A DNA stretch of 64,000 nucleotides from Fibrobacteria bacterium (GCA_015232855.1 JADFYW010000005.1:19926-83925); one strand, 5' to 3'. Counted from the stretch's first letter, positions 22,479-50,632 are shown. The notes: generated by a model not told the origin, from the letters alone. A program made the numbers and translations.

Positions 22479-22520
22479 AAACGTTGTTACTCGATTAAGG
22501 TTAAACGGTAGAAACTATGC

Positions 22521-24302: not shown

Positions 24303-24338
24303 GGTAGTCTCCTTTTGTTGGGGTAGTATTTTTTATCT

Positions 24339-25520
24339 TCAATCCAAATTTTCAATAATGCCTGCTGCGCCCATGCCGCCTCCTATGCACATAGACACCA
24401 TACCATATTTCACTTTTCTTCTTTTCATTTCGTTAATCAGTTTGGTTGTTAATATTGCTCCCGTCGCGCCCAAAGGATGCCCCAGAGCTATAGCGCCTCC
24501 ATTTACATTTACAATGGCCGGATCCAGTTTTAGTGTATTGATAACCGCAATGGCCTGAGAGGCAAAGGCTTCATTTAATTCAATTAAACCAATATCTTTC
24601 AATTCCAGATTAACCTGCTTTAATACCTTGGGAATCGCTTCTACGGGACCAATCCCCATCAGTTCCGGTGGTACTCCAGCCACACTATACCCAACCAACC
24701 GGGCAATGGGTTTAATTTTTAAGGCCTTGGCTTTGTCTTCCGACATTACAATAACACACCCGGCCCCATCACTCATCTGGGAGGCATTTCCCGCCGTAAC
24801 CGTTCCATTTATCTTAAAAGCAGTTTTCAGGCCAGCAAGCACTTCAAGAGTGGTGTCTGCACGGGGACCCTCGTCCGTGGTGAAAGATATTTTATCCGTC
24901 CTTTTTTTGCCGTCTTTGCCTATTGAGGTATAGTCAAACTCTACGGGTACTATTTCGGATTCAAATTTTTTTTCTGTTATAGCTTTTGCTGCCCGCTGGT
25001 GACTTTCTACAGCAAAGGCGTCCTGATCCTCCCGTCTCACCTTGTATTTTTCTGCCACCCGCTCAGCAGTTATACCCATTGAAAAATAGACTTCCGGTGA
25101 ATTATCCACCAGGTCGGGATTGGGTGCAAGTTTATTACCAGTCATAGGAATAAGCGACATTGATTCTGTTCCGCCTGCTATAACAACATCATTTCGGCCC
25201 ACAGCTATAGAATCACTGGCCAGTGCGATAGATTGTAAACCCGAGGAACAAAAACGATTTATTGTATAGGCAGAAACCGAATGAGGTAAACCTCCAACAA
25301 ACTTGGCAATATTAGCCATATTCATCCCGGCTTCTCCTTCAGGCATAGCACAACCCAGTACGATATCATCCACTGCTTCTTTAGGAAGATTTGGAGTCCG
25401 CTCCAGAGCAGCTTTAAATACCAGGCCGGCCAGGTCATCAGGCCTGTAATTAACCAGGGTCCCCCGTTTCGCCTTACCAACCGGGGTTCTGACTGCCGCA
25501 ACTATCACAGGATTTTTCAT
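24339..25520 (-). CDS. fadA: acetyl-CoA C-acyltransferase / 3-ketoacyl-CoA thiolase
   Basis: Motifs NRFCSSGLQSIA (active-site Cys), NEAFASQ, GGAIALGHPLGATG and CIGGGMGAA. Confidence 0.95.
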   Translation of the reverse strand: MKNPVIVAAVRTPVGKAKRGTLVNYRPDDLAGLVFKAALERTPNLPKEAVDDIVLGCAMPEGEAGMNMANIAKFVGGLPHSVSAYTINRFCSSGLQSIALASDSIAVGRNDVVIAGGTESMSLIPMTGNKLAPNPDLVDNSPEVYFSMGITAERVAEKYKVRREDQDAFAVESHQRAAKAITEKKFESEIVPVEFDYTSIGKDGKKRTDKISFTTDEGPRADTTLEVLAGLKTAFKINGTVTAGNASQMSDGAGCVIVMSEDKAKALKIKPIARLVGYSVAGVPPELMGIGPVEAIPKVLKQVNLELKDIGLIELNEAFASQAIAVINTLKLDPAIVNVNGGAIALGHPLGATGAILTTKLINEMKRRKVKYGMVSMCIGGGMGAAGIIENLD

Positions 25521-25564
25521 TTTTGCCTCCTAACTTATTTAATAACTCTTGGCGTCCTTTGCGG

Positions 25565-27916
25565 TTAATTCCTCAACGGCTTTCCTTTTTCCAGCATGTA
25601 TTTTATTCTTTCCTGCGTTTTCCGGGTGCCGCACAGACGTAGGAAATGTTCCCGCTCCAGATCAAGCAGATACTGTTCACTGACTTCCTGTGGTCCACTG
25701 ATGTCACCACCAGTCATAACTTTACCTATGACGGTAGCAATATGTTCGTCATGTTCACTGATAAAGCCACCTTCCCGCATACCACTTACCATTAATTTAA
25801 TAAGTGCCAGGCCCGGACGCCCCATCACCGGTATATTGGTCCTTGGTGTACCAGGTGTATAACCTGATTCGGCAAGACCAATAACTGCCTGTTTGGCTTT
25901 GTGTATGAGTTGGTCGTTATTTACAATTACCTTGTCTGCTGATGTTAAAAAACCCATTTGCCTTGCTTCTTCCCCACTGGTAGCAACCTTCGCCATCCCT
26001 ATGGTTTCAAATACTTTTTGCAGAAAGGGAAGTTCCACGGCACCCTTAGGAGCCTTATCCATGGCCCGCATGAGCATCTCTTTGGTCCCACCTCCTGCAG
26101 GTAACAACCCCACACCAACTTCAACAAGGCCCATATATGTTTCTGCTGCAGCTACAATCTGGTCAGAATGAATACTCACTTCACATCCGCCTCCAAGAGT
26201 CATACCAAAAGGTGCTGCAACCACAGGGCGCGGTGAATATCTAAAGCGCATATTCATTTGCTGGAACTGTCTGATCATAAGTTCAATATCATCCCATTCC
26301 TCTTCCATGATGCTCATGAGAATCATCATTATATTTGCGCCCGCACAGAAATGAGCACCCTGGTTAGCGATTACCAAACCACGGAAATTTTTCTCCACCT
26401 CTTCCATTGCCTTCTTTGAGAAAGAAATTATTTCTCCACCAATGGCATTCATTTTCGTATGAAATTCGAGGCATGCAACCCCGTCTCCCAGGTCAATTAA
26501 ACTGGCTCCAGAATTTTCACACACTGTTTTTTCCTGTGCCTTTAAGTTCTTGAGTATAAGTACATTCGGACCACGGTCCCGTTCTTTATAATCACCTGCA
26601 TTAAAATCATAGAAATATTCCACACCCTTTTCTGTTTTGTAAAATGTTTTATGACCTGCTTCCAGGAATTTACTGATATTTTCAGGCAGTTCCCTGCCTT
26701 CTTTTTTAAGATACTCGGCTACTTTATTCACACCTAATATATCCCAGGTACCAAAAGGGCCTATTTCCCAGCCAAACCCCCACTGCATAGCATTATCAAT
26801 ATCCACAATACTATCCGTTATCTCCCCCATACGCTTGGCACAATAAAGAAGGGTGGATGAAAGGTTTTTCCATAAAAATTTTGAGGCTCCATCCTGAGCA
26901 CTTGTCATTGCTCTTATTTTACCTGCTGCCGTATCTTCAGAACGAGCCAGGGCAATTGAGGGAAATGAAAGCTTTTCTTTATTTACATACTCACCGGTTT
27001 TATGATCGAGATGTAATATTTCTTTCTTTTTGGTTCTGCTAAAAAAGCCCTTGCCTGATTTAGCACCTAAGGCACCATCTTTAATCAGTTTGACAAGAAA
27101 TGCCGGAGTTTTAAACATGTCCCGTTCATCATCTTCAGGGCAATATTCATACAGGTTATTTGCCACGTGGGCAAGAGTATCCAGTCCCACCAGGTCACCC
27201 GTGCGGAATGTCGCGCTTTTTGCATGGCCAATATTAGTCCCGGTAAAAGCGTCAATTTCCTGAATGGAATAACCATCCTCTACCATGGTCCGCATAGCAT
27301 GCATGATAGCATACATCCCGATTCTGTTCGCTATAAAATTAGGAGTATCTTTACATACCACAATACCCTTTCCAAGTACATCGCTACCAAAGTTCTTCAT
27401 AAAGGAAATTACTTCAGGTAATGTATCTCTACCCGGAATAATTTCCAGGAGTTTAAGATACCGGGGAGGATTAAAAAAGTGCATACCAAAAAAATGCTGA
27501 CGCATATCTTCAGTACAGTCCGCAGCCATTTCATTAATAAGCAGACCGGAAGTATTGGAAGCAACAAGAGTCCCGGGCTTCCTGTTCTCATCAATTTTTT
27601 TAAAGAACTCTTTTTTGACATCCATTCGCTCTATGATTACTTCGAGAATAAGATCACATTCCGCTATCTTTTCCAAGTCATCATCAAAATTCCCCAGCTC
27701 AATCAAAGAAGCAAAATCTTTTAGATAAAACGAGGCTGGTTTGGATTTCACAACGGAAGCAAGTCCCGCTCTGGCAACTGCATTTCTATCATTACCATCC
27801 TTTGCGGGAAGATCCATAAGGATACTTGGGATACCCACATTGGCAAAATGAGCGGCAATCGCGCTACCCATTACACCGGAACCCATAACAGCTACTTTTT
27901 TAATTCTATCTTCCAT
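25565..27916 (-). CDS. bifunctional 3-hydroxyacyl-CoA dehydrogenase / enoyl-CoA hydratase (dehydrogenase N-terminal, crotonase C-terminal; FadN-like order)
   Basis: Rossmann motif VAVMGSGVMGSAIAAHFA. HFFNPPRYLKLLEII. Crotonase part VIANQGAHFCAGANI...GGGCEVSIHSD. GAGGT SD favours ATG 27916 over 27922. Confidence 0.9.
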   Translation of the reverse strand: MEDRIKKVAVMGSGVMGSAIAAHFANVGIPSILMDLPAKDGNDRNAVARAGLASVVKSKPASFYLKDFASLIELGNFDDDLEKIAECDLILEVIIERMDVKKEFFKKIDENRKPGTLVASNTSGLLINEMAADCTEDMRQHFFGMHFFNPPRYLKLLEIIPGRDTLPEVISFMKNFGSDVLGKGIVVCKDTPNFIANRIGMYAIMHAMRTMVEDGYSIQEIDAFTGTNIGHAKSATFRTGDLVGLDTLAHVANNLYEYCPEDDERDMFKTPAFLVKLIKDGALGAKSGKGFFSRTKKKEILHLDHKTGEYVNKEKLSFPSIALARSEDTAAGKIRAMTSAQDGASKFLWKNLSSTLLYCAKRMGEITDSIVDIDNAMQWGFGWEIGPFGTWDILGVNKVAEYLKKEGRELPENISKFLEAGHKTFYKTEKGVEYFYDFNAGDYKERDRGPNVLILKNLKAQEKTVCENSGASLIDLGDGVACLEFHTKMNAIGGEIISFSKKAMEEVEKNFRGLVIANQGAHFCAGANIMMILMSIMEEEWDDIELMIRQFQQMNMRFRYSPRPVVAAPFGMTLGGGCEVSIHSDQIVAAAETYMGLVEVGVGLLPAGGGTKEMLMRAMDKAPKGAVELPFLQKVFETIGMAKVATSGEEARQMGFLTSADKVIVNNDQLIHKAKQAVIGLAESGYTPGTPRTNIPVMGRPGLALIKLMVSGMREGGFISEHDEHIATVIGKVMTGGDISGPQEVSEQYLLDLEREHFLRLCGTRKTQERIKYMLEKGKPLRN

Positions 27917-28033
27917 TGTCATACCTCTTTTTTATTATTTGTCATTGCCCGGTTAGGAAATTGTTTTACTAATTGATACAATATGCCAAATATCATTACC
28001 TGGCCTGTTAAGCTGAAAAAAACTTTCTGGACC

Positions 28034-28061
28034 TGTCATTACCCGGCTTGACCTGGTAATC
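28034..28061. repeat. REP-like hairpin, single copy, inside the operon
   Basis: GTCATTACCCGGCTTGACCTGGTAATCC lies between the Fe-S oxidoreductase and dehydrogenase genes. A truncated GTCATTGCCCGG is at 27941-27952. Confidence 0.8.
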
Positions 28062-28103
28062 CATCTCAGGATCGACGATTTGATGGCATTTTCGATAAAC
28101 ATC

Positions 28104-30206
28104 TTATTCACATGCCTCATTCAAAATTTCTGCTACATCTTTTACTTTAACATCCTCATCTTTGTTCAGACTCTTAGTTCCATCAGTGAGCATAGTCAAA
28201 CAATAAGGGCAACAAGAAGCAATGGTGTCTGCACCCGTATCTACTGCTTCCTGGGTACGATTAACATTAATTGCAGTGCCCAGTTTTTCTTCCATCCACA
28301 TGCGCCCGCCACCCGCACCACAGCAAAAACTATTCTTCCGATTTCGGTCCAGTTCGGATAACTGTGCGCCAGGAACTGCGTTAATTATCTTCCGGGGAGG
28401 CTCCAGAATACTATTGTAACGGGTAAGGTAACACGATTCATGCAGTGTTATTTTCCCTTGCAGCTCCTTATTTGGTTTCAGTTTACCTTCATCCAGCAGT
28501 TTAGCCAATATTTCGGTATGGTGATAAACCTCATACTCACCACCAAGCTGAGCGTATTCATTTTTAAGGATATTATATCCATGAGGGCAGGATGCTATAA
28601 TTTTTTTAACCTTATAGCGCCCAAAGGTTTCAATGTTTTGCTGTATCAGCATCTGAGCCAGGTATTCGTTACCCGCTCTTCGCGCCGAATCTCCGCAACA
28701 ACCTTCTTCAGCTCCAAGTATGGCAAAATCCACTCCCGCTTTCTGTAGCAAACTAGCGACGGCAGTTGACACTTTCTGGTTCCGGTCATCAAAAGAGCCC
28801 GCACAACCCACATAATACAGATATTCGGCATCTTGTTTTTCTGCCATCAGTGGTACATTCAATGGCTTTGCCCAGTCACCGCGGGTTTCCGCCCCCAGGC
28901 TCCAGGGGTTCGAATTATTTTCCATACCTTTGAAGGCCTCATTCATTTCTTCAGGAAAATCAGATTCCATCATTACCAGGTACCGGCGCAAATCAATGAG
29001 TTTAGGGAATTGATGAATATAGGCAGGACAGGCTTCCACACAGGCCATGCAGGTGGTACAGGCCCATGCCGTATCTTTATCTACACATTCACCAATAAGT
29101 GCCGGACCTTTGTATTCTTCGTCGGGCACTATCTTTGCTTTGCCATCTTCTCCCATCACAAATTTTGATTTTTCTTCGAGATGGTTTCTCATATTCTGAA
29201 TCACATCCCTCGGACGAAGGGGTTTATCGGTATTATAAGCCGGGCACACTTCAACACAACGTCCACAGCGCATACAGGCTTCAGTATCAAACAAGTCTTT
29301 CCAGGTATATTCTTCTATGTTATGAACACCAAAAGTCTCCGCATTTTCAAAGATTTCTGGTGACATTATTTTTAAAGGTGCCTGCTGTGAATCTGAACGG
29401 AGAAAAATATTCACTGGTGTCATAAACATATGTAATAATTTTGAGTAGGCAATATACACAATAAAAGACAGTGAAAAAGCGAGATGGGTCCACCAGATGA
29501 AGCGGTGAAACGTTTCAGCAGCTTTCACACTTGAACCCGCAAAAAGGAAAGCAAACAAACGTCCTACCGGCGAAAACCAAACATAGGGCCCCATGGGGTT
29601 TCCGGCCTGGAGCTCTGTTGCCTGCATCCGCAACGCCTCTACACAAAAGCCAGAAGCCAGAATCAGCAGCAACAACCAGAGAATCGTCGTATCTTGAATT
29701 CTGTTATCCAGCCAGGCCGGGCGCAAAAAATATCGGCGAACAAGGGCAGCCATTACCGCTAGTAAAGCTAGACCGCCCCCAATATCAGCAGCCATCGAAA
29801 AAAACAGATAAAAATTTCCTTTAAGAAAAGTTACTCCTAACAAAGGTGAGGTAACATCAGCCTGGATAAACACAAGAGTCGTAGCCGCAACAAGGGTTAA
29901 AAATCCCCAGAAAAGACAAAAATGAATAGCACCCATCACGGGCCTTTCAAGAATCTTTTTATGTGTGAGTATTTCTACCAGGGCCTTTACAGCTCTGCCA
30001 GCCTTATCAGAGAGTCTATCATCATCAGTTGCAATACCAAGGCGCCACATCTTAAACCTTGTTAAAAATCCACCCTTAACCAGGCCATGTACAAAAAGCC
30101 CCATTGCGATAAATACCAGCCCATACATGACTATCTGTGTAACAGGAAAGCTTTCAACTGCTACGTTCCAATAAATTTCACGAGTAATAGTGTTTCCGGT
30201 ATTCAT
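28104..30206 (-). CDS. membrane-bound Fe-S oxidoreductase (NarI/HdrE-like membrane domain + 2x[4Fe-4S] + two CCG domains), candidate ETF:menaquinone oxidoreductase
   Basis: The N-terminal roughly 270 aa contain about 6 TM helices. Ferredoxin motifs CMRCGRCVEVCP and CTTCMACVEACP. CCG-type cysteine clusters VGCAGSFD, CCGD, SCPHG and FCCGAGGG...CCPYC. It sits directly next to etfAB. Confidence 0.8.
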   Translation of the reverse strand: MNTGNTITREIYWNVAVESFPVTQIVMYGLVFIAMGLFVHGLVKGGFLTRFKMWRLGIATDDDRLSDKAGRAVKALVEILTHKKILERPVMGAIHFCLFWGFLTLVAATTLVFIQADVTSPLLGVTFLKGNFYLFFSMAADIGGGLALLAVMAALVRRYFLRPAWLDNRIQDTTILWLLLLILASGFCVEALRMQATELQAGNPMGPYVWFSPVGRLFAFLFAGSSVKAAETFHRFIWWTHLAFSLSFIVYIAYSKLLHMFMTPVNIFLRSDSQQAPLKIMSPEIFENAETFGVHNIEEYTWKDLFDTEACMRCGRCVEVCPAYNTDKPLRPRDVIQNMRNHLEEKSKFVMGEDGKAKIVPDEEYKGPALIGECVDKDTAWACTTCMACVEACPAYIHQFPKLIDLRRYLVMMESDFPEEMNEAFKGMENNSNPWSLGAETRGDWAKPLNVPLMAEKQDAEYLYYVGCAGSFDDRNQKVSTAVASLLQKAGVDFAILGAEEGCCGDSARRAGNEYLAQMLIQQNIETFGRYKVKKIIASCPHGYNILKNEYAQLGGEYEVYHHTEILAKLLDEGKLKPNKELQGKITLHESCYLTRYNSILEPPRKIINAVPGAQLSELDRNRKNSFCCGAGGGRMWMEEKLGTAINVNRTQEAVDTGADTIASCCPYCLTMLTDGTKSLNKDEDVKVKDVAEILNEACE

Positions 30207-30321
30207 ATCAGCCTCGCTTTGTTATTTTATTCATCGTTTTTTCCGGCCGTTTTGCTTGTCATCACCCACCTCTTCAAGGGCTGGTTACAATTATTCCTGC
30301 TCCAAACGTAAAGGACGTGAT

Positions 30322-30388
30322 GGACAGCCCGGTCAAATCCGCCTCCGTAGCTTGATTCGGAAGGCGGGAGAGCGGGCCAGACAATGAC
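30322..30388. repeat. degenerate REP-like hairpin carrying an extra internal hairpin
   Basis: GGACAGCCCGGTCAA ... GCGGGCCAGACAATGAC flank TCCGCCTCCG-tagcttgatt-CGGAAGGCGGGA. Located between etfA and the Fe-S oxidoreductase gene. Confidence 0.5.
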
Positions 30389-30417
30389 AAATTATGGGAT
30401 ATAAACAGTAATTATTT

Positions 30418-31380
30418 TTATCCGGCCAATTTGCCTAGTTCCTCTTTGAGGGCAGGAACGACTTCAAACAGGTCACCTACAATACCATAATCTGCGATTT
30501 TAAAAATAGGTGCATCAGCGTCTTTGTTGATAGCGACAATAATCTTGGATGTACGCATTCCCGCCAGATGTTGAATTGCACCAGAAATACCACAAGCAAT
30601 GTAGAGATCCGGTGTCACCACCTTTCCGGTCTGCCCCACCTGGTTGGTATGATCAATCCAGCCAGAATCAACTGCCGCGCGGCTTGCACCAATTGCACCG
30701 CCTAATTGGTCGGCAAGTTCCTGAAGCATGGCAAACGGTTCAGGCCCACCCAGACCCCTCCCACCAGAGACAACAATACGGGCTTCACTCAGATCTATTT
30801 TCCCCTCAGATGCACGAACGATATCTTTAATAACCGTACGGATGCTAAGTTCAGGCATACTTCTTGTTTCTACTTCAGGCTTTGCGTCTCCGTCTGTCTC
30901 AACGGTAAACAGATTAGGCCTAAGGGATACCATCTGTAAACTATCAGTGAGTTTAATTTCCTGGATAGCCTTACCGGCAAACACAGGTTTTTTCACCACA
31001 CAGGCACCGTCCCAGTCCAGGCCAATCACATCCTGGGCCAATTCACAGGCAAGACGCCCGGCAAGGGACGCACATAATTCTTTGCCTAAAAAAGAAGCGG
31101 AACCGATAATGACCGTAGCACTTAATTCCCCGACCAGTTCTTTTACAATACCCACATAAGCATCATTTGAATAGTTCTCCAGCTTTTCGTCATCATAGAG
31201 AAACAATTTTTTAATGTTAAACCCAGCTAATTTATCCGCCTGGGACTCCAGGGAACGACCAACCAGCACAGCATTTACATCCAGTCCGGCTTTTTTACCA
31301 AGTGCAGCAGCGGCAGAGGCAGCTTCCAATGCGCAGCTTCTCAGTTCACCTCTCTGTTCAAGTATTACCAGTATGCTCAT
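30418..31380 (-). CDS. etfA: electron transfer flavoprotein alpha subunit
   Basis: MSILVILEQRGE start (ATG 31380; the track start is GTG 31386). FAD-binding signature PDLYIACGISGAIQHLAGM. Confidence 0.9.
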   Translation of the reverse strand: MSILVILEQRGELRSCALEAASAAAALGKKAGLDVNAVLVGRSLESQADKLAGFNIKKLFLYDDEKLENYSNDAYVGIVKELVGELSATVIIGSASFLGKELCASLAGRLACELAQDVIGLDWDGACVVKKPVFAGKAIQEIKLTDSLQMVSLRPNLFTVETDGDAKPEVETRSMPELSIRTVIKDIVRASEGKIDLSEARIVVSGGRGLGGPEPFAMLQELADQLGGAIGASRAAVDSGWIDHTNQVGQTGKVVTPDLYIACGISGAIQHLAGMRTSKIIVAINKDADAPIFKIADYGIVGDLFEVVPALKEELGKLAG

Positions 31381-31439
31381 AATCACCTCACTCCTTATAG
31401 CTGAATTAAGCGGTGCGTTAGCAACCGCTTCAATGAAAC

Positions 31440-32231
31440 TTATGCCCTTTGGGTATAAATTACTTTTTCATCTTCTTTCAAAATATTTACTAACTCTGCA
31501 ACTCGCGCGGGGGTATCCCCTTCCAGGACTCTTCCACCTGAACGTTCCCTGGGATATTCCATTGAGGTCACCTCCAGACCGGAAGTAATATCAGCTTCTG
31601 ACACACCAATATCAGCAAGGCTTAACTCTTTGATCTCTTTTTTCTTGGCTTTCATGATATTTGGAAGTTTTGGATATCGTGGTGTGTTCAGTCCCTTTTG
31701 AGCAGTGAAAAGAGCTGGCAGGGGGATTTCCATATTATAGCTGCCTCCCTCGATTTCCCGGACCACCTCTACTTTGCCTTCTCCGAGAATAAACCCATTA
31801 ATAACAGAAGCATGGGAAATATTAAGTAGTTCCGCTACTCGCTCAGCAACCTGTGATCCATCATCATCAACGGCCTGTTTGCCAGCAAAGATGAGGTCTA
31901 CTCCCATATCTTTTAAAGCACCTGCAAGACATATGGCAACACCTTTACCCGTAGCTTTTGTAATCGCATCATCCTTTACCAAAACACCGGAATCCGCTCC
32001 CATAGCCAGGGCCATTCTCATAGTTTCTTTGCATTCTTCACCTCCCGCAGAAACGACTACCACCTCACACTCACCTTTTTCTGCCAGCTGAACAGCCTGC
32101 TCAACAGCATGTTCATCATAAGGACTCAGTACAAATTTTAAACCATCCGTTTCTACGGATTTATTATCCGGACCAATTTTAATAACCGATGCGGTATCCG
32201 GTACTCTTTTTACTATTACAGCTATTTTCAT
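31440..32231 (-). CDS. etfB: electron transfer flavoprotein beta subunit
   Basis: Motifs MKIAVIVKRVPD, NPYDEHAVE-like SPYDEHAVEQAV, and LIFAGKQAVDDDGSQV. Confidence 0.9.
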   Translation of the reverse strand: MKIAVIVKRVPDTASVIKIGPDNKSVETDGLKFVLSPYDEHAVEQAVQLAEKGECEVVVVSAGGEECKETMRMALAMGADSGVLVKDDAITKATGKGVAICLAGALKDMGVDLIFAGKQAVDDDGSQVAERVAELLNISHASVINGFILGEGKVEVVREIEGGSYNMEIPLPALFTAQKGLNTPRYPKLPNIMKAKKKEIKELSLADIGVSEADITSGLEVTSMEYPRERSGGRVLEGDTPARVAELVNILKEDEKVIYTQRA

Positions 32232-32278
32232 CGTCTCTGCTCCTTGCTAAAGGTGTTGTAAAAAGCCTTTAATTCATT

Positions 32279-34063
32279 CTAGTTGTTATACATTTTTTCG
32301 ATCAACTTTTTGTGTTTCTCGCCCACCACACGACGTTTTAATTTGAGTGATGGAGTTAGTTCTGCATTATCTATAGTGAAATCTTCCGCAAGCAGTGTGA
32401 TTTTTTTAACCTGATGATAACCAGATAAATCAGCCTGACAGGCATCCACTCTCTCTAAAAAATATTCAAGCACATCATACTTCTGTACAAGCTCGGCCAT
32501 ATCCTTGTAGTTGATTTCTTTTTCTTCGGCTAATTCTTTCAGTTTTTCAAAATCGGGTACCAGCAGGGCAACCAGGTAAGACTGCTTATCGCCGTATACC
32601 GCTGCCTCGGTTATAAACGGATCCAATTTCAGTAAATTTTCAAGAATTTGTGGCGCCACATTCTTTCCATTAGCGGTAACAATCAGGTCTTTTTTCCTAT
32701 CTGTTATTTTGAGATAGCCGTCTTCAAGTTCACCAATATCACCGGTATGTAACCAGCCTTCCCCATCAATAATTTCTTTTGAAGCCTCGTCATTCTTAAA
32801 ATAGCCCTTCATAATATTAGGACCCTTAGCCAGGATTTCGCCGTCTTCAGCAATTTTCACCTCAACATTATCCAGTGGCCTTCCCACTGTGCCCAGGCTT
32901 AATCCCATCTGGCTATTAACTGCAAGAACGGGAGATGTTTCGGTAAGCCCGTATCCCTCATAAATTAAAATCCCAGCGCTTCCAAAAAACTCCGCTATAT
33001 CCTTACTGAGGGGAGCTCCACCCGATATAAAAAATTTCAAGTTTCCGCCCAGTTTGACTTTCAGTTTATCAAAGACCAACTTAGCGGCAATTTTCTTATG
33101 AAGTGACAAAAGACCTGGCTGGGCATTACCGGCTATCTGATTATGAAAATAGGCTTTCCCGGTCTTTACCGCCCATGAAAATATTTTCTTTTTAACCGGA
33201 GAGCCCTTTTCAACGGCGTCTATAACTTTGGCATACATTTTTTCGTATAGACGAGGTACACTCACAGCCAGATCCGGTTTGGCTTCTACCAGATTGTCTG
33301 GTACCGTCTCCACACTCTCAGCATACCATATAGCAATACCACTGAGAAAGGTGGTATAATAACCTGCAGTCCGCTCCAACACATGACAAAGAGGTAAAAA
33401 TGACAGACAGGAATTAATTTCTGACAAATCAACTCTTCGCGTACATGCATCCACATTACTCAGGAAATTTTCATGGCTCAGCATGACCCCTTTTGGTTTA
33501 CCGGTGGTGCCTGAGGTATATATAATTGAAGCAGTATCTGTTGATTTCAAACCCAACAGTCGTTTTTCAATTTCAGGCTGGTTTTTTTCAATATCATTAT
33601 GCCCACTTGACTTTACGTCTGTCATACTAAGCACATCCACAACATCACTTGAAAGTGTCTCCATGGTAATTATAGAGCATAGACTTCCAAGACTCCCTTT
33701 TACAGCTTCAAGTTTTTTCACGATAGTGGCATTAGACGCGATAAGAAATTTCGCTTCAGAATGCTCGATTATGTATTCCATATCTTCAGGACTGCTATTA
33801 ACAAATAGTGGAACATTAATACCACCAAGCTGCATTATGGATATGTCAGAAATCACCCATTCGGGGCGATTTTCACTGACGAGCACCACTTTATCACCGG
33901 GAGTAAGTCCTAAAGACAATAATCCCGAGCTAAAAAATTTTATATCACTCTTTAATTGTGTGTAAGGAACACCATGATACTGACCTGATTCCTTGTAATA
34001 GAGTGCATTTTTACTACCATTTTTTTCGATAACTTCTAAAATTTTTTGCGGTATTGTGCTCAT
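32279..34063 (-). CDS. fadD: long-chain fatty acid--CoA ligase (AMP-forming)
   Basis: AMP-binding motifs YTSGTTGKPKGVMLSH, YGLTETS, GWLHTGDIG and KLKRR. Confidence 0.9.
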   Translation of the reverse strand: MSTIPQKILEVIEKNGSKNALYYKESGQYHGVPYTQLKSDIKFFSSGLLSLGLTPGDKVVLVSENRPEWVISDISIMQLGGINVPLFVNSSPEDMEYIIEHSEAKFLIASNATIVKKLEAVKGSLGSLCSIITMETLSSDVVDVLSMTDVKSSGHNDIEKNQPEIEKRLLGLKSTDTASIIYTSGTTGKPKGVMLSHENFLSNVDACTRRVDLSEINSCLSFLPLCHVLERTAGYYTTFLSGIAIWYAESVETVPDNLVEAKPDLAVSVPRLYEKMYAKVIDAVEKGSPVKKKIFSWAVKTGKAYFHNQIAGNAQPGLLSLHKKIAAKLVFDKLKVKLGGNLKFFISGGAPLSKDIAEFFGSAGILIYEGYGLTETSPVLAVNSQMGLSLGTVGRPLDNVEVKIAEDGEILAKGPNIMKGYFKNDEASKEIIDGEGWLHTGDIGELEDGYLKITDRKKDLIVTANGKNVAPQILENLLKLDPFITEAAVYGDKQSYLVALLVPDFEKLKELAEEKEINYKDMAELVQKYDVLEYFLERVDACQADLSGYHQVKKITLLAEDFTIDNAELTPSLKLKRRVVGEKHKKLIEKMYNN

Positions 34064-34221
34064 ATCAGTCCTTCAGGATAGTTAACCTATTATCTAAATA
34101 TTTATTTATAAAAGCTATAGAAAAAGAATTGCGCCAAACAACTATGTTATTGCAAAAATAATGCCATGAAAGTGGGCTATTTGGCCAAAAAACCACACCA
34201 TGGTTGGTGTTAATCACCTAT

Positions 34222-34243
34222 ACTGCGCAATTTTTTGCGCAGT
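34222..34243. promoter_or_regulatory. perfect 22-bp palindrome, candidate operator or RNA hairpin between the transport triad and fadD
   Basis: ACTGCGCAA-TTTT-TTGCGCAGT, about 160-180 nt upstream of the fadD start. No convincing U-tract on the transcribed (minus) strand. Confidence 0.3.
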
Positions 34244-34431
34244 TTGAGAACAACTGTGCAAAAGTTCTGTTTAAATCGACCAGGTTCGTCCCTGGCGTAT
34301 ATTTTTTCAGAAGCCCAAAATGTTTAACTAAGGTGGTGGGATGAAACAGGCTAAGACAACTACTGGAATGACCGGAAAGTTAGTGAAGGATAAAATGGTA
34401 TTTCTACACAATGATGTAGAGGCAATATCAA

Positions 34432-35805
34432 CTAAAAATATGCTACAATTTTCGCCATCATTGAATGGTAAATTGATCCAAATTCGGTTTTTTTCCTATC
34501 TCCTGCGGCAATTGATACCCTAAAATCAAGACTTACGCCATCACTGAAATAGTATTCTGCCGTAGGCATAATAATAGCTGAATAATCACTTAGGTTAGAA
34601 AGCACAAAGACTGTGGCATCCACTTTGTCCCAAAAATTATCACGAACGCCGAGCATCAGGTAATTTTCTCCCAAACCAGCCATATCGCCCATGTACTGTA
34701 AAAAGATATCTGTAGGAGCATATCGGTCCGGGTTAGAATGTCCCAGAGAATTGAAATAATATTCGCCCATAACATATATTCCACTTTCAAATGTGTAATC
34801 AAGCCCCGCATCTACCTGAAAATACGTGGAATCAATTTCAAAATTATCCATATCATCATTTTTATGGTTGATAGCCACAGCCTCTGCCCACACGCCGACT
34901 TCACCAATTTGACCCGCCATATCAACTCCAAAGATATTCCTGGCAGGTAAACCCAATATTACTCTGTCAGCATTCATAAAGCGTGAAGCTGAAACAGAAG
35001 CATCATACCCCAGCATATTTGTTTTCACCCTGACACCCACGCTGGAATGTTTGAGGTCTGCCCCAGGTACCCCTATAAGATTGATATTACTGAGTTCACC
35101 AAAAGGCATTTCTATCCGCAAAGCATTCACACCCAGTTTTGGAGCACTTACATCCAGTGGGTTTTTCTGGTTCCAAATATCAGTGGGATTAAAGGCATAC
35201 CCTGTCCCCCAGGCTATCTGTTGTCTGCCAACATACACATCTGCATGCTTAAAAAAGAGTTTAATGAGCAACCGATCCAGCATAATGGTTTCTTTAGGAT
35301 AGAACGAAGTATAGGGTAAATAGCGAATAGTCCGGTCATCCAGCATAAACATAAGCTCCGAAAACCCATCCATAGCACCGGCGTTAGACGAATCCGTCAT
35401 CATTGCAGATAAAGTAGTATCATTCTGTACACCAGCAAGCATATTCTCAAACATCCCATCAAACAAGCTCATCATTTTAGAACCTTTTCGCATTCCCAGT
35501 ATTGGATCAATAGGCTGGTAGGCTGTAGAGAATATTACATGGGACTCAAAAGAGTAAAAATCTGTCCCGGCACTGGCTTCTACCCGTAATTTTGCAACAT
35601 CAGAGAAATACCCCGTATCAGCAAAAGTAAACATAGTCTCATTCTCACCATACCCACCAATTTCAAGTTTTTGGGCATCCGATAAACTTATGCTAAAAAG
35701 AACAATCATTATAGCAAAAACCATCGTTATACACCCATCTCTTCGAGTAGTCCACTGAAGTAGGACGTATCGAACAGTCATTAGAGGAGTCAGTATCACT
35801 TTCAT
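34432..35805 (-). CDS. putative outer-membrane beta-barrel protein (DUF1302-like)
   Basis: GAGGG SD lies 5 nt before ATG 35805. A hydrophobic signal-like segment MVFAIMIVLFSISLSDAQ. Alternating strands, the GRQQIAWGTGYAFNPTD motif and a terminal ...AKIVAYF. Confidence 0.6.
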   Translation of the reverse strand: MKVILTPLMTVRYVLLQWTTRRDGCITMVFAIMIVLFSISLSDAQKLEIGGYGENETMFTFADTGYFSDVAKLRVEASAGTDFYSFESHVIFSTAYQPIDPILGMRKGSKMMSLFDGMFENMLAGVQNDTTLSAMMTDSSNAGAMDGFSELMFMLDDRTIRYLPYTSFYPKETIMLDRLLIKLFFKHADVYVGRQQIAWGTGYAFNPTDIWNQKNPLDVSAPKLGVNALRIEMPFGELSNINLIGVPGADLKHSSVGVRVKTNMLGYDASVSASRFMNADRVILGLPARNIFGVDMAGQIGEVGVWAEAVAINHKNDDMDNFEIDSTYFQVDAGLDYTFESGIYVMGEYYFNSLGHSNPDRYAPTDIFLQYMGDMAGLGENYLMLGVRDNFWDKVDATVFVLSNLSDYSAIIMPTAEYYFSDGVSLDFRVSIAAGDRKKTEFGSIYHSMMAKIVAYF

Positions 35806-35812
35806 ATTTCCC

Positions 35813-36550
35813 TCATCGTTTCAAGTTCCGCTCAGAAAAGATATTGTCTTTAAGAGGCAGGTCATACTCAATTTTATCCATGGTCATGAGGGTACGAGAC
35901 CCCTTCTGAACGTTTTTCATTTCTATTGATTTAGGGGTCCAATAGTTTCCAACTTTAGAAACATCACTCATTTTTAACACTTTCCAAAGCTTTTTATCCT
36001 CATCATACATTTCACTCTTCACTAATACATAGTTTGATTTATCAATCCAGGAAATAGATTTCGAATAAGTCTTATCTTCATCTTTGGCAGTCATCAATAA
36101 TTTGAAACACTTCTTACCTTCAAGTTCTTCTTCACCAAGTAATTGGGGGTTATAATCTTTACGCATATCTTTAGCAGACATATCATCATAAGAAAAATCA
36201 GAGCCATTCACCGACTGGTTCTTCTGGTGACTGGCTATTTTCCGAACACGGGAGGTACGGGGCGAATAGAGCCAGATATCATCACCATCATTTAACATGA
36301 GGATTTTCATACCTTTGATTCGGGCGGGTTTAAGGTACTCCATTAATCCTTTATCACCTTTATCCTTTGAATAACTTAGCAAGTTAGACTTCCGTTCTTC
36401 CCCACTAGCAGTATAAACAATCTGGGTCATTTCAATTTTTGCTGACTTCGCCTCTTCATTGGCCTCGACTTTATCAAGTATTTCATCAACCGTTTGGGCC
36501 AAAGAAAATGAAACAAGAAACAATAATGTGGTTAATAGTACCTTTTTCAT
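35813..36550 (-). CDS. LolA-like (outer-membrane lipoprotein-sorting-type fold) secreted protein
   Basis: Signal MKKVLLTTLLFLVSFSLAQ. Motifs DDIWLYSPRTSRVRKI, GSDFSYDDMS, WIDKSNYVLVK and IFSERNLKR. The ATG overlaps the MMPL stop (ATGA). Confidence 0.7.
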   Translation of the reverse strand: MKKVLLTTLLFLVSFSLAQTVDEILDKVEANEEAKSAKIEMTQIVYTASGEERKSNLLSYSKDKGDKGLMEYLKPARIKGMKILMLNDGDDIWLYSPRTSRVRKIASHQKNQSVNGSDFSYDDMSAKDMRKDYNPQLLGEEELEGKKCFKLLMTAKDEDKTYSKSISWIDKSNYVLVKSEMYDEDKKLWKVLKMSDVSKVGNYWTPKSIEMKNVQKGSRTLMTMDKIEYDLPLKDNIFSERNLKR

Positions 36551-39450
36551 TTTTTACTCCTTTTGCTGAAGATGTTATCAAAAATGGTTATGATTGAAGG
36601 AAGAACATAAGCAGAACTAAGAAAGCAGGAACCGACTCCCAACACCAGTACCTGGCCCATACTGGCAATACCTCGATGAGATGCTAATCCCATTGAGCCA
36701 AAACCAATAATAGTCGTAAGAGTGGTGAGTAAAATTGCTCTCCCCGTATACCGAAGAACCGTGGGAATTGCAAATTTACCCTCCAGTTTGTAGCGATGTA
36801 ATATATGCACACCATCATCAATACCTATGCCTATAATAAGAGGTAAAGCCATAAAATTTGAGTAGTTAAATTTTATTCCAAAAAGGGCCATAAACCCCAC
36901 CATCCACATCGCACCAACAAAAAGAGGGATAGCAGCAAACATTGTGTATTTCAATGAATGAAAATCTAAGAGTAAAAATATCAGTATCGCAATAGCTCCC
37001 ATAAGAATGGCCATGCCGCCCTTTTCTTTAACCAAATCAATAAAAAGTAAAGTAATAGCAGGTGAACCCGTAATTTTTTCAGATATTTTTACGGTGGTTT
37101 CATGAAACTTACGCAGATTCGTTTCTTCCCAAATATTCGATTTGGGATACACCGTCACCAAAAGTTTATCATTTTTTTTATTCACATAGCGATTACGGAT
37201 ATCATCAGAAAGGTTGTCCAGGGTAATATTTTCTTCTGAAGTCATGGTCATAAGTTTGTTTTTTAAAACAGAGGCCATAACCGTTTGATATAGAGCAAGT
37301 TTTTCTGGATTATCATTAATCACTTCAAGCTTATTTACCATTGCCAGAATTTTACTGTCTTCATCCTTCTTACCGACTATATTATCACATTTACGTAATA
37401 CCTTGTTGTTTTCTCCATTACTGGTAATTGAAAGTTCTCCGATTTCCACAATATTCTGGTGCAACCGGACCAGTTCACTTTTCAATTTAGCGAGATCATT
37501 GTTATTAAATAGCTTTGGAATACTCATCATCTCAAGCTGTTGCTTAAAATCATTTATAATCGTTTTATTCTTTTCCTGTTTTTTTGTTTCAGGAATAAAC
37601 TCGGTAATACCGTCTACCCTGCCAATAATACCTGTTCTGTTACCCGCCTTCTTGAGCTTCCGTACCTTGTCACGACAATCATCTTCATTTTCGGTGACTA
37701 ACATGGCGTAATCAGGAGAGATCTCAAACCGATCCAATATTTTATCCTGTACTATTTTAGATGGAATGCCAATTGGTTCAAGTTCCATCATATCATATTC
37801 GAACTCAATGTGACTACCAGCCTTCCAGGACATATAAACCGTAACAACACTGATAACGACAATTAATATCGCTACCGGTGTCCGGGATATTATTCTGCCA
37901 GACGCTTCAAGGAACCTGAATTGAAATAATGCGGTGACCCAGGTAAACACCGGTAACCCAAAGAAGGCGTACACAAGCTCAATAATTTTCACATAGATGT
38001 TAACCAGAAACCCAAGGCCAATTTTACGTAACAGTCTCCCGGTAACAGAATACCCCTTACTATCCCAGACAATAAGCGCAGGAAGTAAAATCATCATGGC
38101 CAACATGGTAACGATAACACCCACCCCAATTGCAATTCCCATCTCAGACAATGCTTTAAATCGTGTTAAGGCAAGAGTAAAGAAGACAATGGACGTAGTG
38201 AGACCACCTGTTACTAATCCATTTCCTACCTTCTGGTACATCTGAAAAATAGCATCTTCTACGTTAAGCCCTTCTTCTCTTCCATCACGAAAACCAGAAA
38301 TCACATGTATACCAAAATCAATTCCCAGTCCTATGAGGACTATGCCAAACGATGCAGACATCAGGTTAAGGTAATGGAGTATGATACCTAACATCCCAGC
38401 TACCCAAATAATAGAAACCACCAATACCGTAACTGAAAAGAAAGGGTTCTTCCAGGTTCGAAAAGATCCGATTAGTAAAACGAGAATAAATAATAGTGCA
38501 AAGAGACTGGGCCATCCAAAATCTTTTTTAAGTGCTTCGGTTTCGTCAATCTGGAGTATAAGCAAGCCAGATGCGCCTATATCAAGTTCTGGATACAACG
38601 AACGAATGTGTTCGAGAGAATCAACCACTTTGTAACCAAGATCCATCGCATCTTCAAATTCATTAAAACTGACTGAAGGCTGCAACATAAGAAGCAACAG
38701 AGTATTATCAGAAGAAATAAAATACTCCGGCCCTGTCACAAACGTCCGTACGGCTTCTGCAACGTTAGAGGTATCACCTTCATCAATGAATGTACCAATG
38801 CTGGTTACAAATTTGTACATCCCTTCAAGACCTTGAATAGCCTCGGCCTCTCCATCAAGGGAAGCGAGGTTTTCAGCGTCATCTACAAATTCCTTTTCGA
38901 AATTATTATTGATATTTTCTATAAGATCCGGTAATGCCAGAGAACCAAACATATCAACAAAATTTACCAGGTCCTTTGGCTTTTGCATCATCATACCATG
39001 TTCTGCAATAAAATCATTATCAATTCTATAATCAATGCGTTTGACCAGAGGAAGCGTATCATACCTAACTCCGGCTACAGGATGTTCTTTAAACATCAAA
39101 TCGATATTTTGTTTGAAACTGAGTTTCTGGTCTTCCGCCGGTTTAACCCGACTGATATTCTTAAGTCGCCCTGCAATTTCTTCAGCAGATTTTTTCATCA
39201 GGGCAACATTTTTTTCTTTACTCTCTACAGCAATCATAACCGTATTTGCAGAAGAGTAGTCTTCAATAATACGCTCAAACTCTTCTATTTGAGGTATGTT
39301 TTTGGGCATCATATCAGAATAAGATGTCTTCATAGTTAACCTGCCTGAGGCAACTATCATGGCAATAGTAAAAAGAGCGCATACGGTCAGTACTGTTTTG
39401 TTACGCTTTGTAATTACATAAGCCAGCCATTTGTAAATTTTCGATCTCAT
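36547..39450 (-). CDS. MMPL/RND-superfamily membrane transporter (two 6-TM bundles with large loop domains)
   Basis: 967 aa. One N-terminal TM, a large soluble region, a 5-6-TM block (SLFALLFILVLLIGSF...), a second large soluble region and a second TM block (MAILMGAIAILIFLLL...GIGIDDGVHILHRY). Confidence 0.85.
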   Translation of the reverse strand: MRSKIYKWLAYVITKRNKTVLTVCALFTIAMIVASGRLTMKTSYSDMMPKNIPQIEEFERIIEDYSSANTVMIAVESKEKNVALMKKSAEEIAGRLKNISRVKPAEDQKLSFKQNIDLMFKEHPVAGVRYDTLPLVKRIDYRIDNDFIAEHGMMMQKPKDLVNFVDMFGSLALPDLIENINNNFEKEFVDDAENLASLDGEAEAIQGLEGMYKFVTSIGTFIDEGDTSNVAEAVRTFVTGPEYFISSDNTLLLLMLQPSVSFNEFEDAMDLGYKVVDSLEHIRSLYPELDIGASGLLILQIDETEALKKDFGWPSLFALLFILVLLIGSFRTWKNPFFSVTVLVVSIIWVAGMLGIILHYLNLMSASFGIVLIGLGIDFGIHVISGFRDGREEGLNVEDAIFQMYQKVGNGLVTGGLTTSIVFFTLALTRFKALSEMGIAIGVGVIVTMLAMMILLPALIVWDSKGYSVTGRLLRKIGLGFLVNIYVKIIELVYAFFGLPVFTWVTALFQFRFLEASGRIISRTPVAILIVVISVVTVYMSWKAGSHIEFEYDMMELEPIGIPSKIVQDKILDRFEISPDYAMLVTENEDDCRDKVRKLKKAGNRTGIIGRVDGITEFIPETKKQEKNKTIINDFKQQLEMMSIPKLFNNNDLAKLKSELVRLHQNIVEIGELSITSNGENNKVLRKCDNIVGKKDEDSKILAMVNKLEVINDNPEKLALYQTVMASVLKNKLMTMTSEENITLDNLSDDIRNRYVNKKNDKLLVTVYPKSNIWEETNLRKFHETTVKISEKITGSPAITLLFIDLVKEKGGMAILMGAIAILIFLLLDFHSLKYTMFAAIPLFVGAMWMVGFMALFGIKFNYSNFMALPLIIGIGIDDGVHILHRYKLEGKFAIPTVLRYTGRAILLTTLTTIIGFGSMGLASHRGIASMGQVLVLGVGSCFLSSAYVLPSIITIFDNIFSKRSKK

Positions 39451-39451
39451 G

Positions 39452-40039
39452 CTATCCTTCCTTTTTACAGTATTTGTTAATAAGCTGTTGTTTAATGGCT
39501 TCCATCGGATACCTCTCCCCCGCGTACGAATACATCATGCTGGAAGCATCCATGGAAGATGCCAACAAATACGCCTCTATTTTAGGATTAGGTATATTGT
39601 TGTTTTTTAACATGACTTCCATCTGCGCAATATACCCCTCCATAAAATTCAATAGTTTTTCATTTATTTTTTTTGGCATTTTCGGGTGCAAAATCATGGA
39701 CCAGTAAAACCGCATATAAGCAGCTTCTTTAATTGAATCATCAAAATACAGCTCTATGAGTTTCTGAAGTTTTTTACCAGGATCCTTTATCTTCTCCATT
39801 TCAACAAGCCCTACTGAAAACTCTCCAGCTTTATCAAAAATGACTGCTTCTAATAAATCATCTTTACTTTTGAAATAATTGTAAATGAGTCCTTTAGAAA
39901 TTTTCGCCTTTTTAGCGATTTTATCAATGGACGTGGTATGGTACCCGTTCACTGCAAATAGTTCAATAGCAGCATCCATAATGGACCGCCTGCTTTTTTC
40001 CCGTACTTTTTTCAGTTGTTTTTCTGTTCTTGGATTCAT
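39452..40039 (-). CDS. TetR/AcrR family transcriptional regulator
   Basis: HTH segment SIMDAAIELFAVNGYHTTSIDKIAKKAKISKGLIYNYFKSKDDLL. The stop is 1 nt before the MMPL start. The start is either ATG 40039 (GAAAGG upstream) or ATG 40072 (possibly leaderless). Confidence 0.9.
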   Translation of the reverse strand: MNPRTEKQLKKVREKSRRSIMDAAIELFAVNGYHTTSIDKIAKKAKISKGLIYNYFKSKDDLLEAVIFDKAGEFSVGLVEMEKIKDPGKKLQKLIELYFDDSIKEAAYMRFYWSMILHPKMPKKINEKLLNFMEGYIAQMEVMLKNNNIPNPKIEAYLLASSMDASSMMYSYAGERYPMEAIKQQLINKYCKKEG

Positions 40040-40077
40040 AAGCCCTTTCTTTAGTATTGACCGACCAGTCATTCATA

Positions 40078-40106
40078 AATATATCACCTTTTGTAAAAAG
40101 AGTCAA
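40078..40106 (-). promoter_or_regulatory. candidate sigma-70 promoter of the TetR-MMPL operon
   Basis: The minus strand reads TTGACT-17 nt-TATATT. The spacer CTTTTTACAAAAGGTGA contains the small inverted repeat CTTTT-N3-AAAAG. Confidence 0.45.
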
Positions 40107-40495
40107 GTACAATTTTTCATTCTCTTTATAGCATTACCAATTCTGAGTAAAAGCTCTGCACTTTCCTCTACCAGTGGCACATCAAATACACCTTCTTTTA
40201 AGCCTTGCCTGATAAGCCAGTAATAGCGTTTATCTATCAATTTCATCGAAACAAACGATTAGATCTTTAGGCATTCCTAATTTATTATTGAAAGAGCAAA
40301 ACAGAAGGAAATACAAAATAATGAAACAGTTAACAGTTCAATATGAAACAAGGAATAATTTTTGAAACAAACCGCACATCAAAAATGTCTAAAAATCAAA
40401 AGAAAGGACATGGCATGCTATTTGCGAAAGATTAAGAACTAATAAGTGGAGTACAATATTACCACTTTCATTTAAAAAAAGAAGTGAGGCCCAGG

Positions 40496-48332: not shown

Positions 48333-48477
48333 CACAATAAGTTGTTGCGTGTAAGCTTTCTTTAAACTATTTTCTTCCTGTTCAATTCTTATAAATAATG
48401 ATTTCTCTAATTTTCAATTTTAATGTTTCACAACGAGCCCAATTTTTATCAACCGTTTATTCATAAAGGTGATCTCC

Positions 48478-50628: not shown

Positions 50629-50632
50629 ACTG

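Follow-up and report, generated by a model that had tools for sequence, protein, structure and literature searches.

Several proteobacterial gene clusters combine an outer-membrane barrel of the DUF1302 family with a DUF1329 protein and an inner-membrane transporter of the RND superfamily. The monoterpene-induced AmeABCD system of Castellaniella defragrans combines a DUF1302 barrel and a DUF1329 protein with a COG4447 propeller and a HAE3 RND transporter; when it is deleted, tolerance of monoterpenes falls and more Nile Red accumulates, indicating efflux (PMC6394551). The DUF1302, DUF1329, BNR and RND families are cofit in Shewanella, Kangiella and Pseudomonas, with pleiotropic phenotypes, and Price et al. 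proposed that this cluster exports a cell-wall component; DUF1329 genes also lie in phenanthrene, p-cresol and steroid catabolic clusters (10.1101/072470). Pseudomonas putida needs its DUF1302 and DUF1329 proteins on Tween 20 and on butyl stearate (10.1101/2020.07.04.188060), and in Thalassolituus oleivorans an MMPL-LolA-like fusion protein, TOL_3187, and the porin-like TOL_3188 show 42-fold or exclusive induction on a C28 alkane (PMC6304351). A later model makes these families a transport system in which DUF1329 has two alternative partners, the barrel and the RND/BNR pair (PMC10866462), while a published AlphaFold-Multimer prediction docks DUF1302 with DUF1329 (ipTM 0.84), the former being described as an 18-strand barrel with a TM-score of 0.55 to the alginate exporter AlgE and no solved structure (PMC13499233). 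Here we examine a 64,000-nucleotide stretch from a Fibrobacteria bacterium (GCA_015232855.1, JADFYW010000005.1:19926-83925), called the window throughout, in which positions 34432-40106 hold genes for a TetR regulator, an RND-superfamily transporter, a LolA_like protein and a beta-barrel. It is near certain that the last three proteins act together, one per envelope compartment, and, judged by homology and gene neighbourhood, the module is the counterpart in Fibrobacterota and the FCB group of AmeABCD-type systems, cut to three structural genes.

The genes of the module, in order of transcription, are as follows.

39452-40072, minus strand: TetR-family regulator, 206 aa (PF00440, E 2.8e-19)
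36547-39450, minus strand: RND-superfamily inner-membrane transporter (MMPL/HAE3/HpnN-like), 967 aa (MMPL PF03176, E 1e-27)
35813-36550, minus strand: LolA_like periplasmic carrier, 245 aa (PF17131, E 8.2e-64)
34432-35805, minus strand: outer-membrane beta-barrel open reading frame (ORF), 457 aa, ending ...VAYF (AlphaFold2 model and profile links to DUF1302)

ORF calling confirmed that the four genes lie head to tail on the minus strand, as a preliminary description of the locus had it, with the RND gene starting 1 nt past the TetR stop and the LolA_like ATG placed on the RND stop in a 4-nt ATGA overlap. The barrel gene had been said to begin 7 nt after the LolA_like gene; this distance holds for a start at 35805, for which a GAGGG Shine-Dalgarno sequence argues, and becomes 88 nt for a start at Met28 (35724, 430 aa), which is the one found in the NCBI annotation and in an alignment of about 40 homologues. 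The start at 35724 is the probable one, and the mature protein is identical with either. The barrel protein is 100% identical to HQK83_02230.

The barrel has no useful direct match in Pfam, NCBIfam or PDB sequence profiles (the best are TDE1717, E 0.018, and a spurious G-protein-coupled receptor chain, E 0.24), so that only a structure model and an iterated profile search resolved its identity. The AlphaFold2 model, built on an alignment of 43 family members, has a mean pLDDT of 86.2, a pTM of 0.81 and about 18 beta-strands, and is thus a confident barrel and not the soluble protein that would have spoken against a trans-envelope system. A helical insertion, residues 74-134, separates strand 3 from strand 4 and would be an extracellular loop if the usual topology applies. 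The most conserved stretch, GRQxIAWGTGYxFNPTDIWN, lies just after strand 5; by topology it would correspond to the third extracellular loop and is a candidate pore-lining element. The C-terminal Tyr-Phe is nearly invariant in the family, as expected for an outer-membrane protein. Foldseek against the PDB returned the 18-strand AlgE first (E 5e-13, TM-score 0.55) and then general porins (TM-score 0.42-0.47). An assignment to FadL/TodX, which has 14 strands and an N-terminal hatch, was rejected: there is no PF03349 match, the model has 18 strands and AlgE is its best match.

PF06980 (DUF1302) is not matched by the window barrel even at E<=1, and only one of 101 close-family representatives touches it, weakly (E 0.004), so that Pfam misses this branch of barrels. 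Proteins with a PF06980 match are nevertheless found by the family profile (E 1e-30, 6e-23 and 1e-12), and on rescan these bridging proteins score 38.9, 27.8 and 26.5 bits with DUF1302, all over the gathering score of 23.2; hhalign between the barrel family and one of them gave 99.6%, E 2e-24, over 261 columns. The bridging proteins are themselves found in TetR-MMPL-LolA_like-barrel clusters. By these profile links the barrel is a Pfam-unannotated branch of the DUF1302 superfamily, the homology being at superfamily level, and both its strand number and its TM-score to AlgE equal those of the published DUF1302 model (PMC13499233). Because the profile searches tie the barrel to DUF1302, the trio of the window is homologous to the DUF1302/DUF1329/HAE3-RND systems, going beyond the analogy drawn in the preliminary description.

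The carrier likewise connects to these systems. It is above the DUF1329 (PF07044) cut-off (49 bits against 23.1, E 7e-13), PF17131, renamed 'TP_0789-like' in newer Pfam releases, being the better match at 215 bits. Its PDB relatives are 9tp6 (3e-37), 3bk5 (3e-25), 4z48 and 3buu, and this strong homology to solved LolA_like structures points to a LolA-fold protein with a putative lipid-shielding role; a literature search on TP0789/TP_0789 gave nothing relevant. It has a signal peptide and no lipobox Cys, and is therefore expected to be soluble in the periplasm; the lipobox is also missing from 63 of 67 LolA_like homologues from related loci. It was rejected as a LolA equivalog, scoring 18.8 bits against a required 112 with TIGR00547 and 34.8 against 100 with LolA1_Flavo.

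The RND protein, which passes the Pfam MMPL model, shows about 12 hydrophobic, transmembrane segments in its hydropathy profile, with a periplasmic loop of about 270 aa in two places (residues about 39-310 and 539-811), and keeps the Asp motifs of segment 4 (GLGIDFGIH at residue 374) and segment 10 (GIGIDDGVH at residue 874). It is HAE3-like and stays under every curated NCBIfam cut-off, with 306 bits for HpnN (TIGR03480, cut-off 752), 170 for NF052374 (1100), 222 for BstA (1400) and 207 for HAE3 (TIGR00921, 352). Its best solved relatives are the HpnN structures 6wu0 and 5khn. The scores are far enough below the cut-offs for an identity with HpnN or BstA to be rejected, and no hopanoid or sterol biosynthesis genes are present in the window.

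Relatives of the barrel, scanned in one genome per species (523 matches), occur in Fibrobacterota, Chitinispirillales/Chitinivibrionales, Raymondbacteria, Delongbacteria, Marinimicrobia, KSB1, Calditrichota, Bacteroidales, TA06, LCP-89 and others, and the family amounts to 8,403 clusters at 50% identity with E<=1e-3, or 1,116 with E<=1e-30. Chitinispirillum alkaliphilum, with a cluster around CHISP_2573, is a cultured carrier of the module. Synteny was compared in 80 related loci, 71 with enough upstream sequence and 43 with complete flanks. A LolA_like gene is located on the same strand at most 6 kb from the barrel gene in 68 of the 71, and an inner-membrane engine is present in all 43 fully flanked loci, being an RND transporter in 41 (upstream in 26, downstream in 15) and a MacB-type ABC transporter in two. 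The latter is an FtsX-FtsX-ABC set with the LolCDE-like layout of two permeases plus an ATPase. The main gene orders are RND-LolA-barrel, TetR-RND-LolA-barrel, TetR-LolA-barrel-RND and (TetR-)LolA-FtsX-FtsX-ABC-barrel, and the clades of the barrel track arrangement and engine type. The gene orders and clades together lead us to regard the carrier-barrel pair as the constant core of the module, with an engine that varies between deep lineages. In two loci (L005 and L011; Chitinivibrionales and an uncultured metagenome-assembled genome, MAG) a MacB-type and an RND module are arranged in tandem on a single strand, with a LolA_like and a barrel gene in both, while in L006 the ABC and FtsX genes directly follow the RND-LolA_like-barrel trio on its 3' side and bring no further carrier or barrel gene with them.

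In two Chitinispirillaceae MAGs the RND gene runs in frame into the LolA_like gene (L007 6287-9973, 1228 aa; L009 6206-9916, 1236 aa). The junctions keep an AAGGAGG Shine-Dalgarno sequence, an ATG and a signal peptide, so that fused and separate products are both possible, the signal peptide becoming a 13th transmembrane segment or being cleaved. Since separate translation is permitted, we rejected the fusions as pure Rosetta-stone proof of a joint function.

The co-occurrence of the three genes is thus conserved in other genomes, and the synteny, the in-frame fusions and the confident barrel model bear out the earlier view of a single module with one protein per envelope compartment. It could still be argued that the genes are chance neighbours and form no single machine, the barrel being a diffusion porin and the LolA_like protein an unrelated periplasmic one; the barrel model is porin-like as well as AlgE-like, and a few family members weakly match porin Pfam models. 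We consider this extremely improbable given a synteny kept across phyla and three gene orders, barrel clades that follow the engine type, the translational coupling, the fusions and the published multimer prediction for the homologous pair (PMC13499233).

The other families that recur around the module in the 80 loci are TetR, GntR, Band_7, histidine kinase and MacB-ABC. In about 10 Chitinispirillales loci a GntR and Band_7 (SPFH) pair precedes the RND gene and replaces TetR, and in one MAG a protein with an N-glycanase_C domain is encoded between the RND and LolA_like genes; both are lineage-specific additions (L001 2298-3664 and L002 5274-7238, respectively).

Compared with the proteobacterial systems (PP_0765/0766 with PP_2018/2019 in P. 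putida, and AmeABCD), the module of the window has in common the 18-strand barrel with similarity to AlgE, the LolA-fold partner, an RND transporter that here is HAE3-like, the lack of a membrane-fusion protein and of TolC, and genes that are clustered or cofit. It differs in several respects. The barrel has about 430 aa rather than about 600 and is invisible to PF06980, and the carrier is of the compact, 245-aa PF17131 type, in contrast to a DUF1329 protein of about 450 aa. The BNR/Ycf48-like propeller (COG4447), a fourth protein in the proteobacterial systems, is found neither in the operon of the window nor among the recurrent families of the 80 loci. The regulator is TetR (or GntR) instead of LuxR or AraC, a MacB-type ABC transporter can take the place of the RND engine, and the hosts are Fibrobacterota and the FCB group instead of Proteobacteria. 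What is new here is thus a branch of barrels that Pfam does not see, working with a compact carrier and an interchangeable engine, regulated by TetR and lacking the BNR component. TOL_3187/3188 resembles the module in joining MMPL to a LolA-like domain, as do L007 and L009, in the unannotated porin-like protein that follows and in the link to a hydrophobic substrate (PMC6304351); it is gammaproteobacterial, the data are proteomic only, and TOL_3188, which has no conserved domain, is set beside our barrel by description. The preliminary description was aware of no experimentally characterised system of this composition. Genetic or proteomic data do exist for homologues or analogues (AmeABCD, Pseudomonas, where RB-TnSeq was used, and Shewanella, TOL_3187/3188), so that the statement stands only for biochemistry, structure and a settled direction and cargo.

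AcrAB-TolC, MacAB-TolC and the TetR-controlled RND-superfamily fatty-acid efflux pump FarE/FarR of Staphylococcus aureus (PMC10019231) also have an inner-membrane RND or MacB engine, a local TetR repressor and hydrophobic substrates. Unlike AcrAB-TolC and MacAB-TolC, the module has neither a fusion adaptor nor a TolC-type channel-tunnel: we did not find any membrane-fusion (HlyD-type) or TolC-type gene in the window, in the annotated related loci or among the recurrent families of the 80 loci. A canonical HAE1-type tripartite RND pump was rejected for this reason, and the LolA_like protein and the barrel would then fill the place of the missing components. A soluble carrier and a porin-like barrel suggest a relay rather than a continuous duct; a shuttle or chaperone mode is the likelier one since a soluble carrier of 245 aa alone cannot span the periplasm. 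AlgE, the best structural match, has 18 strands as well, but is only 10-11% identical to the barrel, which has no Alginate_exp Pfam match and another conserved loop motif, and no alginate genes are present here.

We propose that the module is a self-contained, TetR-gated trans-envelope relay that exports a hydrophobic or amphiphilic small molecule, a reading which in our judgement stands at about an even chance. A HAE3/HpnN-like RND transporter that runs on the proton-motive force would take the cargo from the inner membrane and pass it to the soluble LolA_like protein, which would shield it across the periplasm; the carrier would then dock on the 18-strand DUF1302-related barrel, and this would place the cargo in the outer membrane or release it outside. 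The TetR repressor would hold the operon off until a lipid-like ligand arrives. Here the cargo may be free fatty acids, which is the weakest step of the proposal.

To our knowledge every characterised bacterial member of the RND and MacB classes (HpnN, MmpL3, LolCDE, MacB) moves substrates out of the inner membrane, and we know of no bacterial RND or MacB-type transporter that imports. Outward transport is therefore somewhat favoured by analogy, as both engine classes of the module are known to move substrates in that direction only. It is also favoured by a local TetR control typical of efflux pumps, of which FarE/FarR is a fatty-acid example (PMC10019231), by the sole deletion study of a homologous system, AmeABCD, which indicates efflux (PMC6394551), and by the likeness of the barrel model to AlgE, itself an exporter.

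Several points weigh against an export relay. We infer the direction of transport from the engine classes only, and in eukaryotes an RND relative, NPC1, is handed sterol by NPC2, a soluble carrier, and so works in the inward direction. Homologous or analogous systems recur in the catabolism of hydrophobic substrates (Tween 20, butyl stearate, monoterpenes, C28 alkane), which would fit uptake equally well. Besides the regulators, MacB-ABC and Band_7 (about 11 loci), no family recurs at the module in the 80 loci, and so no metabolic one that might hint at the cargo. Finally, in this genome the module adjoins a complete fatty-acid oxidation set, with no FadL in view.

The two features between and beyond the barrel gene and this set are the following.

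34185-34210, minus strand: terminator-like hairpin, ACACCAACCATGGTGT then GGTTTTTTGG (T-run), between the barrel gene and fadD (consensus match only)
22521-34063, minus strand: context genes fadD, etfB, etfA, Fe-S/CCG oxidoreductase, FadB-like, thiolase and acyl-CoA dehydrogenase (Pfam)

The gene content of this one-directional block is as it had been described, Pfam assigning fadD, etfB, etfA, the Fe-S/CCG oxidoreductase, a FadB-like fusion, a thiolase and an acyl-CoA dehydrogenase, with the correction that its last beta-oxidation ORF ends at 22521 and not at 22443. No ORF of at least 120 aa in the window encodes a FadL/Toluene_X family protein, again in line with the earlier account. The membrane Fe-S/CCG oxidoreductase (28104-30206, minus strand), directly after etfB and etfA, resembles the quinone oxidoreductases of electron-transfer flavoprotein in anaerobic or syntrophic fatty-acid oxidation, and the anaerobic ribonucleotide reductase genes NrdD/NrdG (48469-51331, plus strand) likewise suggest an anaerobic lifestyle.

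These neighbours invite the reading that the module is an uptake conduit, in which the barrel would admit long-chain fatty acids or other hydrophobic nutrients, the LolA_like protein would carry them, the RND transporter would insert them in the manner of NPC2 to NPC1, and FadD would activate them. The module is adjacent to, and co-directional with, the fadD-etfBA-beta-oxidation genes, with no FadL in the window, and the growth defects of the P. putida mutants (10.1101/2020.07.04.188060), the alkane induction of TOL_3187/3188 (PMC6304351) and the place of DUF1329 in catabolic clusters (10.1101/072470) agree with it. The coupling to beta-oxidation inferred in the preliminary description did not hold up, however. 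FadD, EtfAB, FadB, thiolase and acyl-CoA dehydrogenase genes are absent from the module's strand in all 80 related loci, and downstream of the three closest relatives (54-58% identity) there is a protein kinase, small unknown genes or another TetR. The hairpin follows the barrel stop at a distance of 222 nt and precedes the ATG of fadD by about 120 nt; it falls within the 368-nt gap and suggests that the transporter and fad genes are separate transcription units. A search for an operator or inverted repeat common to 40073-40483 and 34064-34431 found none. The perfect palindrome GCGCAATTTTTTGCGC at 34225-34263, overlapping a 12-nt inverted repeat about 160-200 nt 5' of fadD, occurs nowhere else in the window; a regulator of the fad genes may use it as an operator. 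The transporter module (34000-40000) has a GC content of 0.37-0.39 against 0.44-0.46 in the beta-oxidation block (22000-32000), which could reflect membrane-protein composition or a separate evolutionary history.

The regulator, too, can be read in favour of uptake, as its best relatives are acyl-CoA-binding FadR proteins of Bacillus: the best NCBIfam model is the Bacillus-type FadR (NF053878), and B. subtilis FadR/YsiA (1vi0, 3whb) is among the top PDB relatives. The model score is only 70 bits against a cut-off of 200, however, and the similarity is mostly confined to the DNA-binding half. An identity with Bacillus-type FadR was rejected on this low score and on the lack of an operator common with the region upstream of fadD, and the likeness is only a hint at a lipid-like ligand. 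A TetR gene is found on the same strand in 17 of the 43 fully flanked loci, and in 30 loci in the tally of neighbour families; it is a recurrent member of the module and its own local regulator, not a fad regulator that happens to be next to it. With no bacterial RND or MacB-type importer known to us, a carrier-barrel pair that is also combined with LolCDE-like ABC engines, and AmeABCD data that favour efflux (PMC6394551), we consider uptake unlikely, although a serious rival given the catabolic links of homologous systems and the local fad context. The fad adjacency is not a conserved property of the system, although in this organism it may still be meaningful.

A promoter had been predicted upstream of the TetR gene.

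40078-40106, minus strand: sigma-70-like promoter match TTGACT-17-TATATT with a TG-extended -10 element, 10 of 12 consensus matches, directly 5' of the TetR gene

The match is present at 40106-40078, with the TG extension in addition. Promoter-like matches are as frequent in the region as expected by chance (20 observed, 21.4 +/- 4.7 expected), and for this reason it cannot be used as statistical evidence. Its -10 element ends 5 nt before the TetR ATG (40072), meaning that either the TetR transcript is leaderless or the real TetR start is Met12.

A second triad, diverged from the first, had been placed at 1-2440, and proved to be real by PF17131, the barrel profile and a barrel model.

2-205, plus strand: second RND gene, of which the window edge leaves only the C-terminal end (hydrophobic, transmembrane-like stretch and tail in frame 2)
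202-1002, plus strand: second LolA_like carrier, 266 aa (PF17131, E 2.4e-54)
1166-2440, plus strand: second barrel, 424 aa, distantly paralogous to the first with about 21% identity (family profile, E 9.7e-55)

Here too the RND stop overlaps the next ATG (202) as ATGA. The second carrier is 28% identical to the first (E 4e-22), and the second barrel has a GRQxxxWGTG motif in common with its paralogue; its model is an all-beta barrel (pLDDT 72.7, pTM 0.73), for which Foldseek returned porins and AlgE at TM-scores of about 0.55.

Such duplication bears on a further explanation, that the module serves constitutive envelope biogenesis by supplying the outer membrane with an endogenous component from the inner one, be it a lipid, a pigment or polymer with a lipid anchor, or some of the lipoproteins, with the barrel as a LolB-like acceptor or insertase in a group without LolB. 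MmpL7, an RND protein, hands phthiocerol dimycocerosate (PDIM) to its LolA-fold partner LppX, and HpnN (hopanoids), BstABC (sterols) and ApeL/M/N (aryl polyenes) similarly use an MMPL/HAE3-type RND transporter for lipid exit from the inner membrane. In ApeL/M/N, for which a related logic has been proposed, the RND protein passes the lipid to a LolA-fold partner (PMC8253772). Unlike the module, these systems belong to biosynthetic clusters and lack an outer-membrane barrel of their own. The Lol pathway (LolCDE-LolA-LolB) has the same logic of extraction, shuttle and acceptor, the LolA fold, and the two-permease-plus-ATPase layout of our MacB-type variants, and the Borrelia BBJ25-28 cluster, with a comparable proposal, has a MacB-like engine together with a LolA-like protein and a barrel in the outer membrane (PMC13078400). 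The module of the window differs from both in its RND engine, in an acceptor that is an integral 18-strand barrel and neither LolB nor Omp85, in scores below the cut-offs of the LolA models and in its TetR control. The Lol lipoprotein-sorting pathway itself was rejected on the LolA equivalog scores, the RND engine and the integral barrel.

Biogenesis would agree with the closest named RND relatives, HpnN and BstA, being lipid transporters, with the LolA fold of the carrier and the LolC/LolE-like layout of the MacB-type variants, and with the pleiotropic phenotypes and the cell-wall export proposed by Price et al. (10.1101/072470). Against it, the local regulators (TetR or GntR) and the occurrence of several diverged paralogues in a genome, seen in the two triads of this 64-kb window and in the tandem modules of L005 and L011, point to inducible accessory systems with diversified substrates rather than to housekeeping; no biosynthetic genes recur beside the module, and the carrier is far from a LolA equivalog. 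A role in biogenesis is therefore doubtful in our view, and an inducible export relay is the reading that we prefer.

Elsewhere in the window, a gene for a 2806-aa protein with at least 13 CarboxypepD_reg repeats (54621-63041, minus strand) is flanked by two ORFs without a Pfam match (63038-63985 and 53554-54624), whose ends overlap it, and the three probably form one operon for a giant surface protein. A Laminin_G_3 protein with a Por_Secre_tail, the type IX secretion sorting domain (6415-9204, minus strand), and a surface protein of 1494 aa that has InlB-B-repeat, Ig and CHB_HEX_C domains (13319-17803, minus strand) are consistent with an organism of the FCB group. Two minus-strand ORFs, 11088-12299 and 12169-13284, overlap by about 130 nt, one being a group-1 glycosyltransferase and the other without a family match; the upstream start of the second is probably over-called.

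The barrel family is large and all of its members are labelled 'hypothetical', and the link to DUF1302 lets proteobacterial genetic data extend to Fibrobacterota, Marinimicrobia, KSB1, Calditrichota, Delongbacteria and Bacteroidales. One and the same carrier-barrel pair with either an RND or a MacB-type ABC engine suggests a general periplasmic chaperone-relay route, distinct from TolC-type ducts, and bears on how the cargo of HAE3/MMPL pumps reaches or crosses the outer membrane. A bolder view, to which we give little credence, is that the LolA_like protein and the DUF1302-related barrel are an engine-independent back end that takes proton-driven RND or ATP-driven LolCDE-like ABC motors and that possibly works inward here, feeding long-chain fatty acids to anaerobic beta-oxidation. 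If true, this back end would be a third general architecture for crossing the Gram-negative envelope, beside TolC-type ducts and Lpt/Mla-type bridges, extending over thousands of protein clusters, and an inward direction here would give bacteria their first case of lipid import that depends on an RND transporter, comparable to the transfer of sterol from NPC2 to NPC1. The minimal, three-gene version of the system should be simpler to reconstitute. Systems of this kind affect the tolerance of fatty acids, solvents and detergents, and possibly the uptake of hydrophobic substrates, in environmentally important uncultured lineages.

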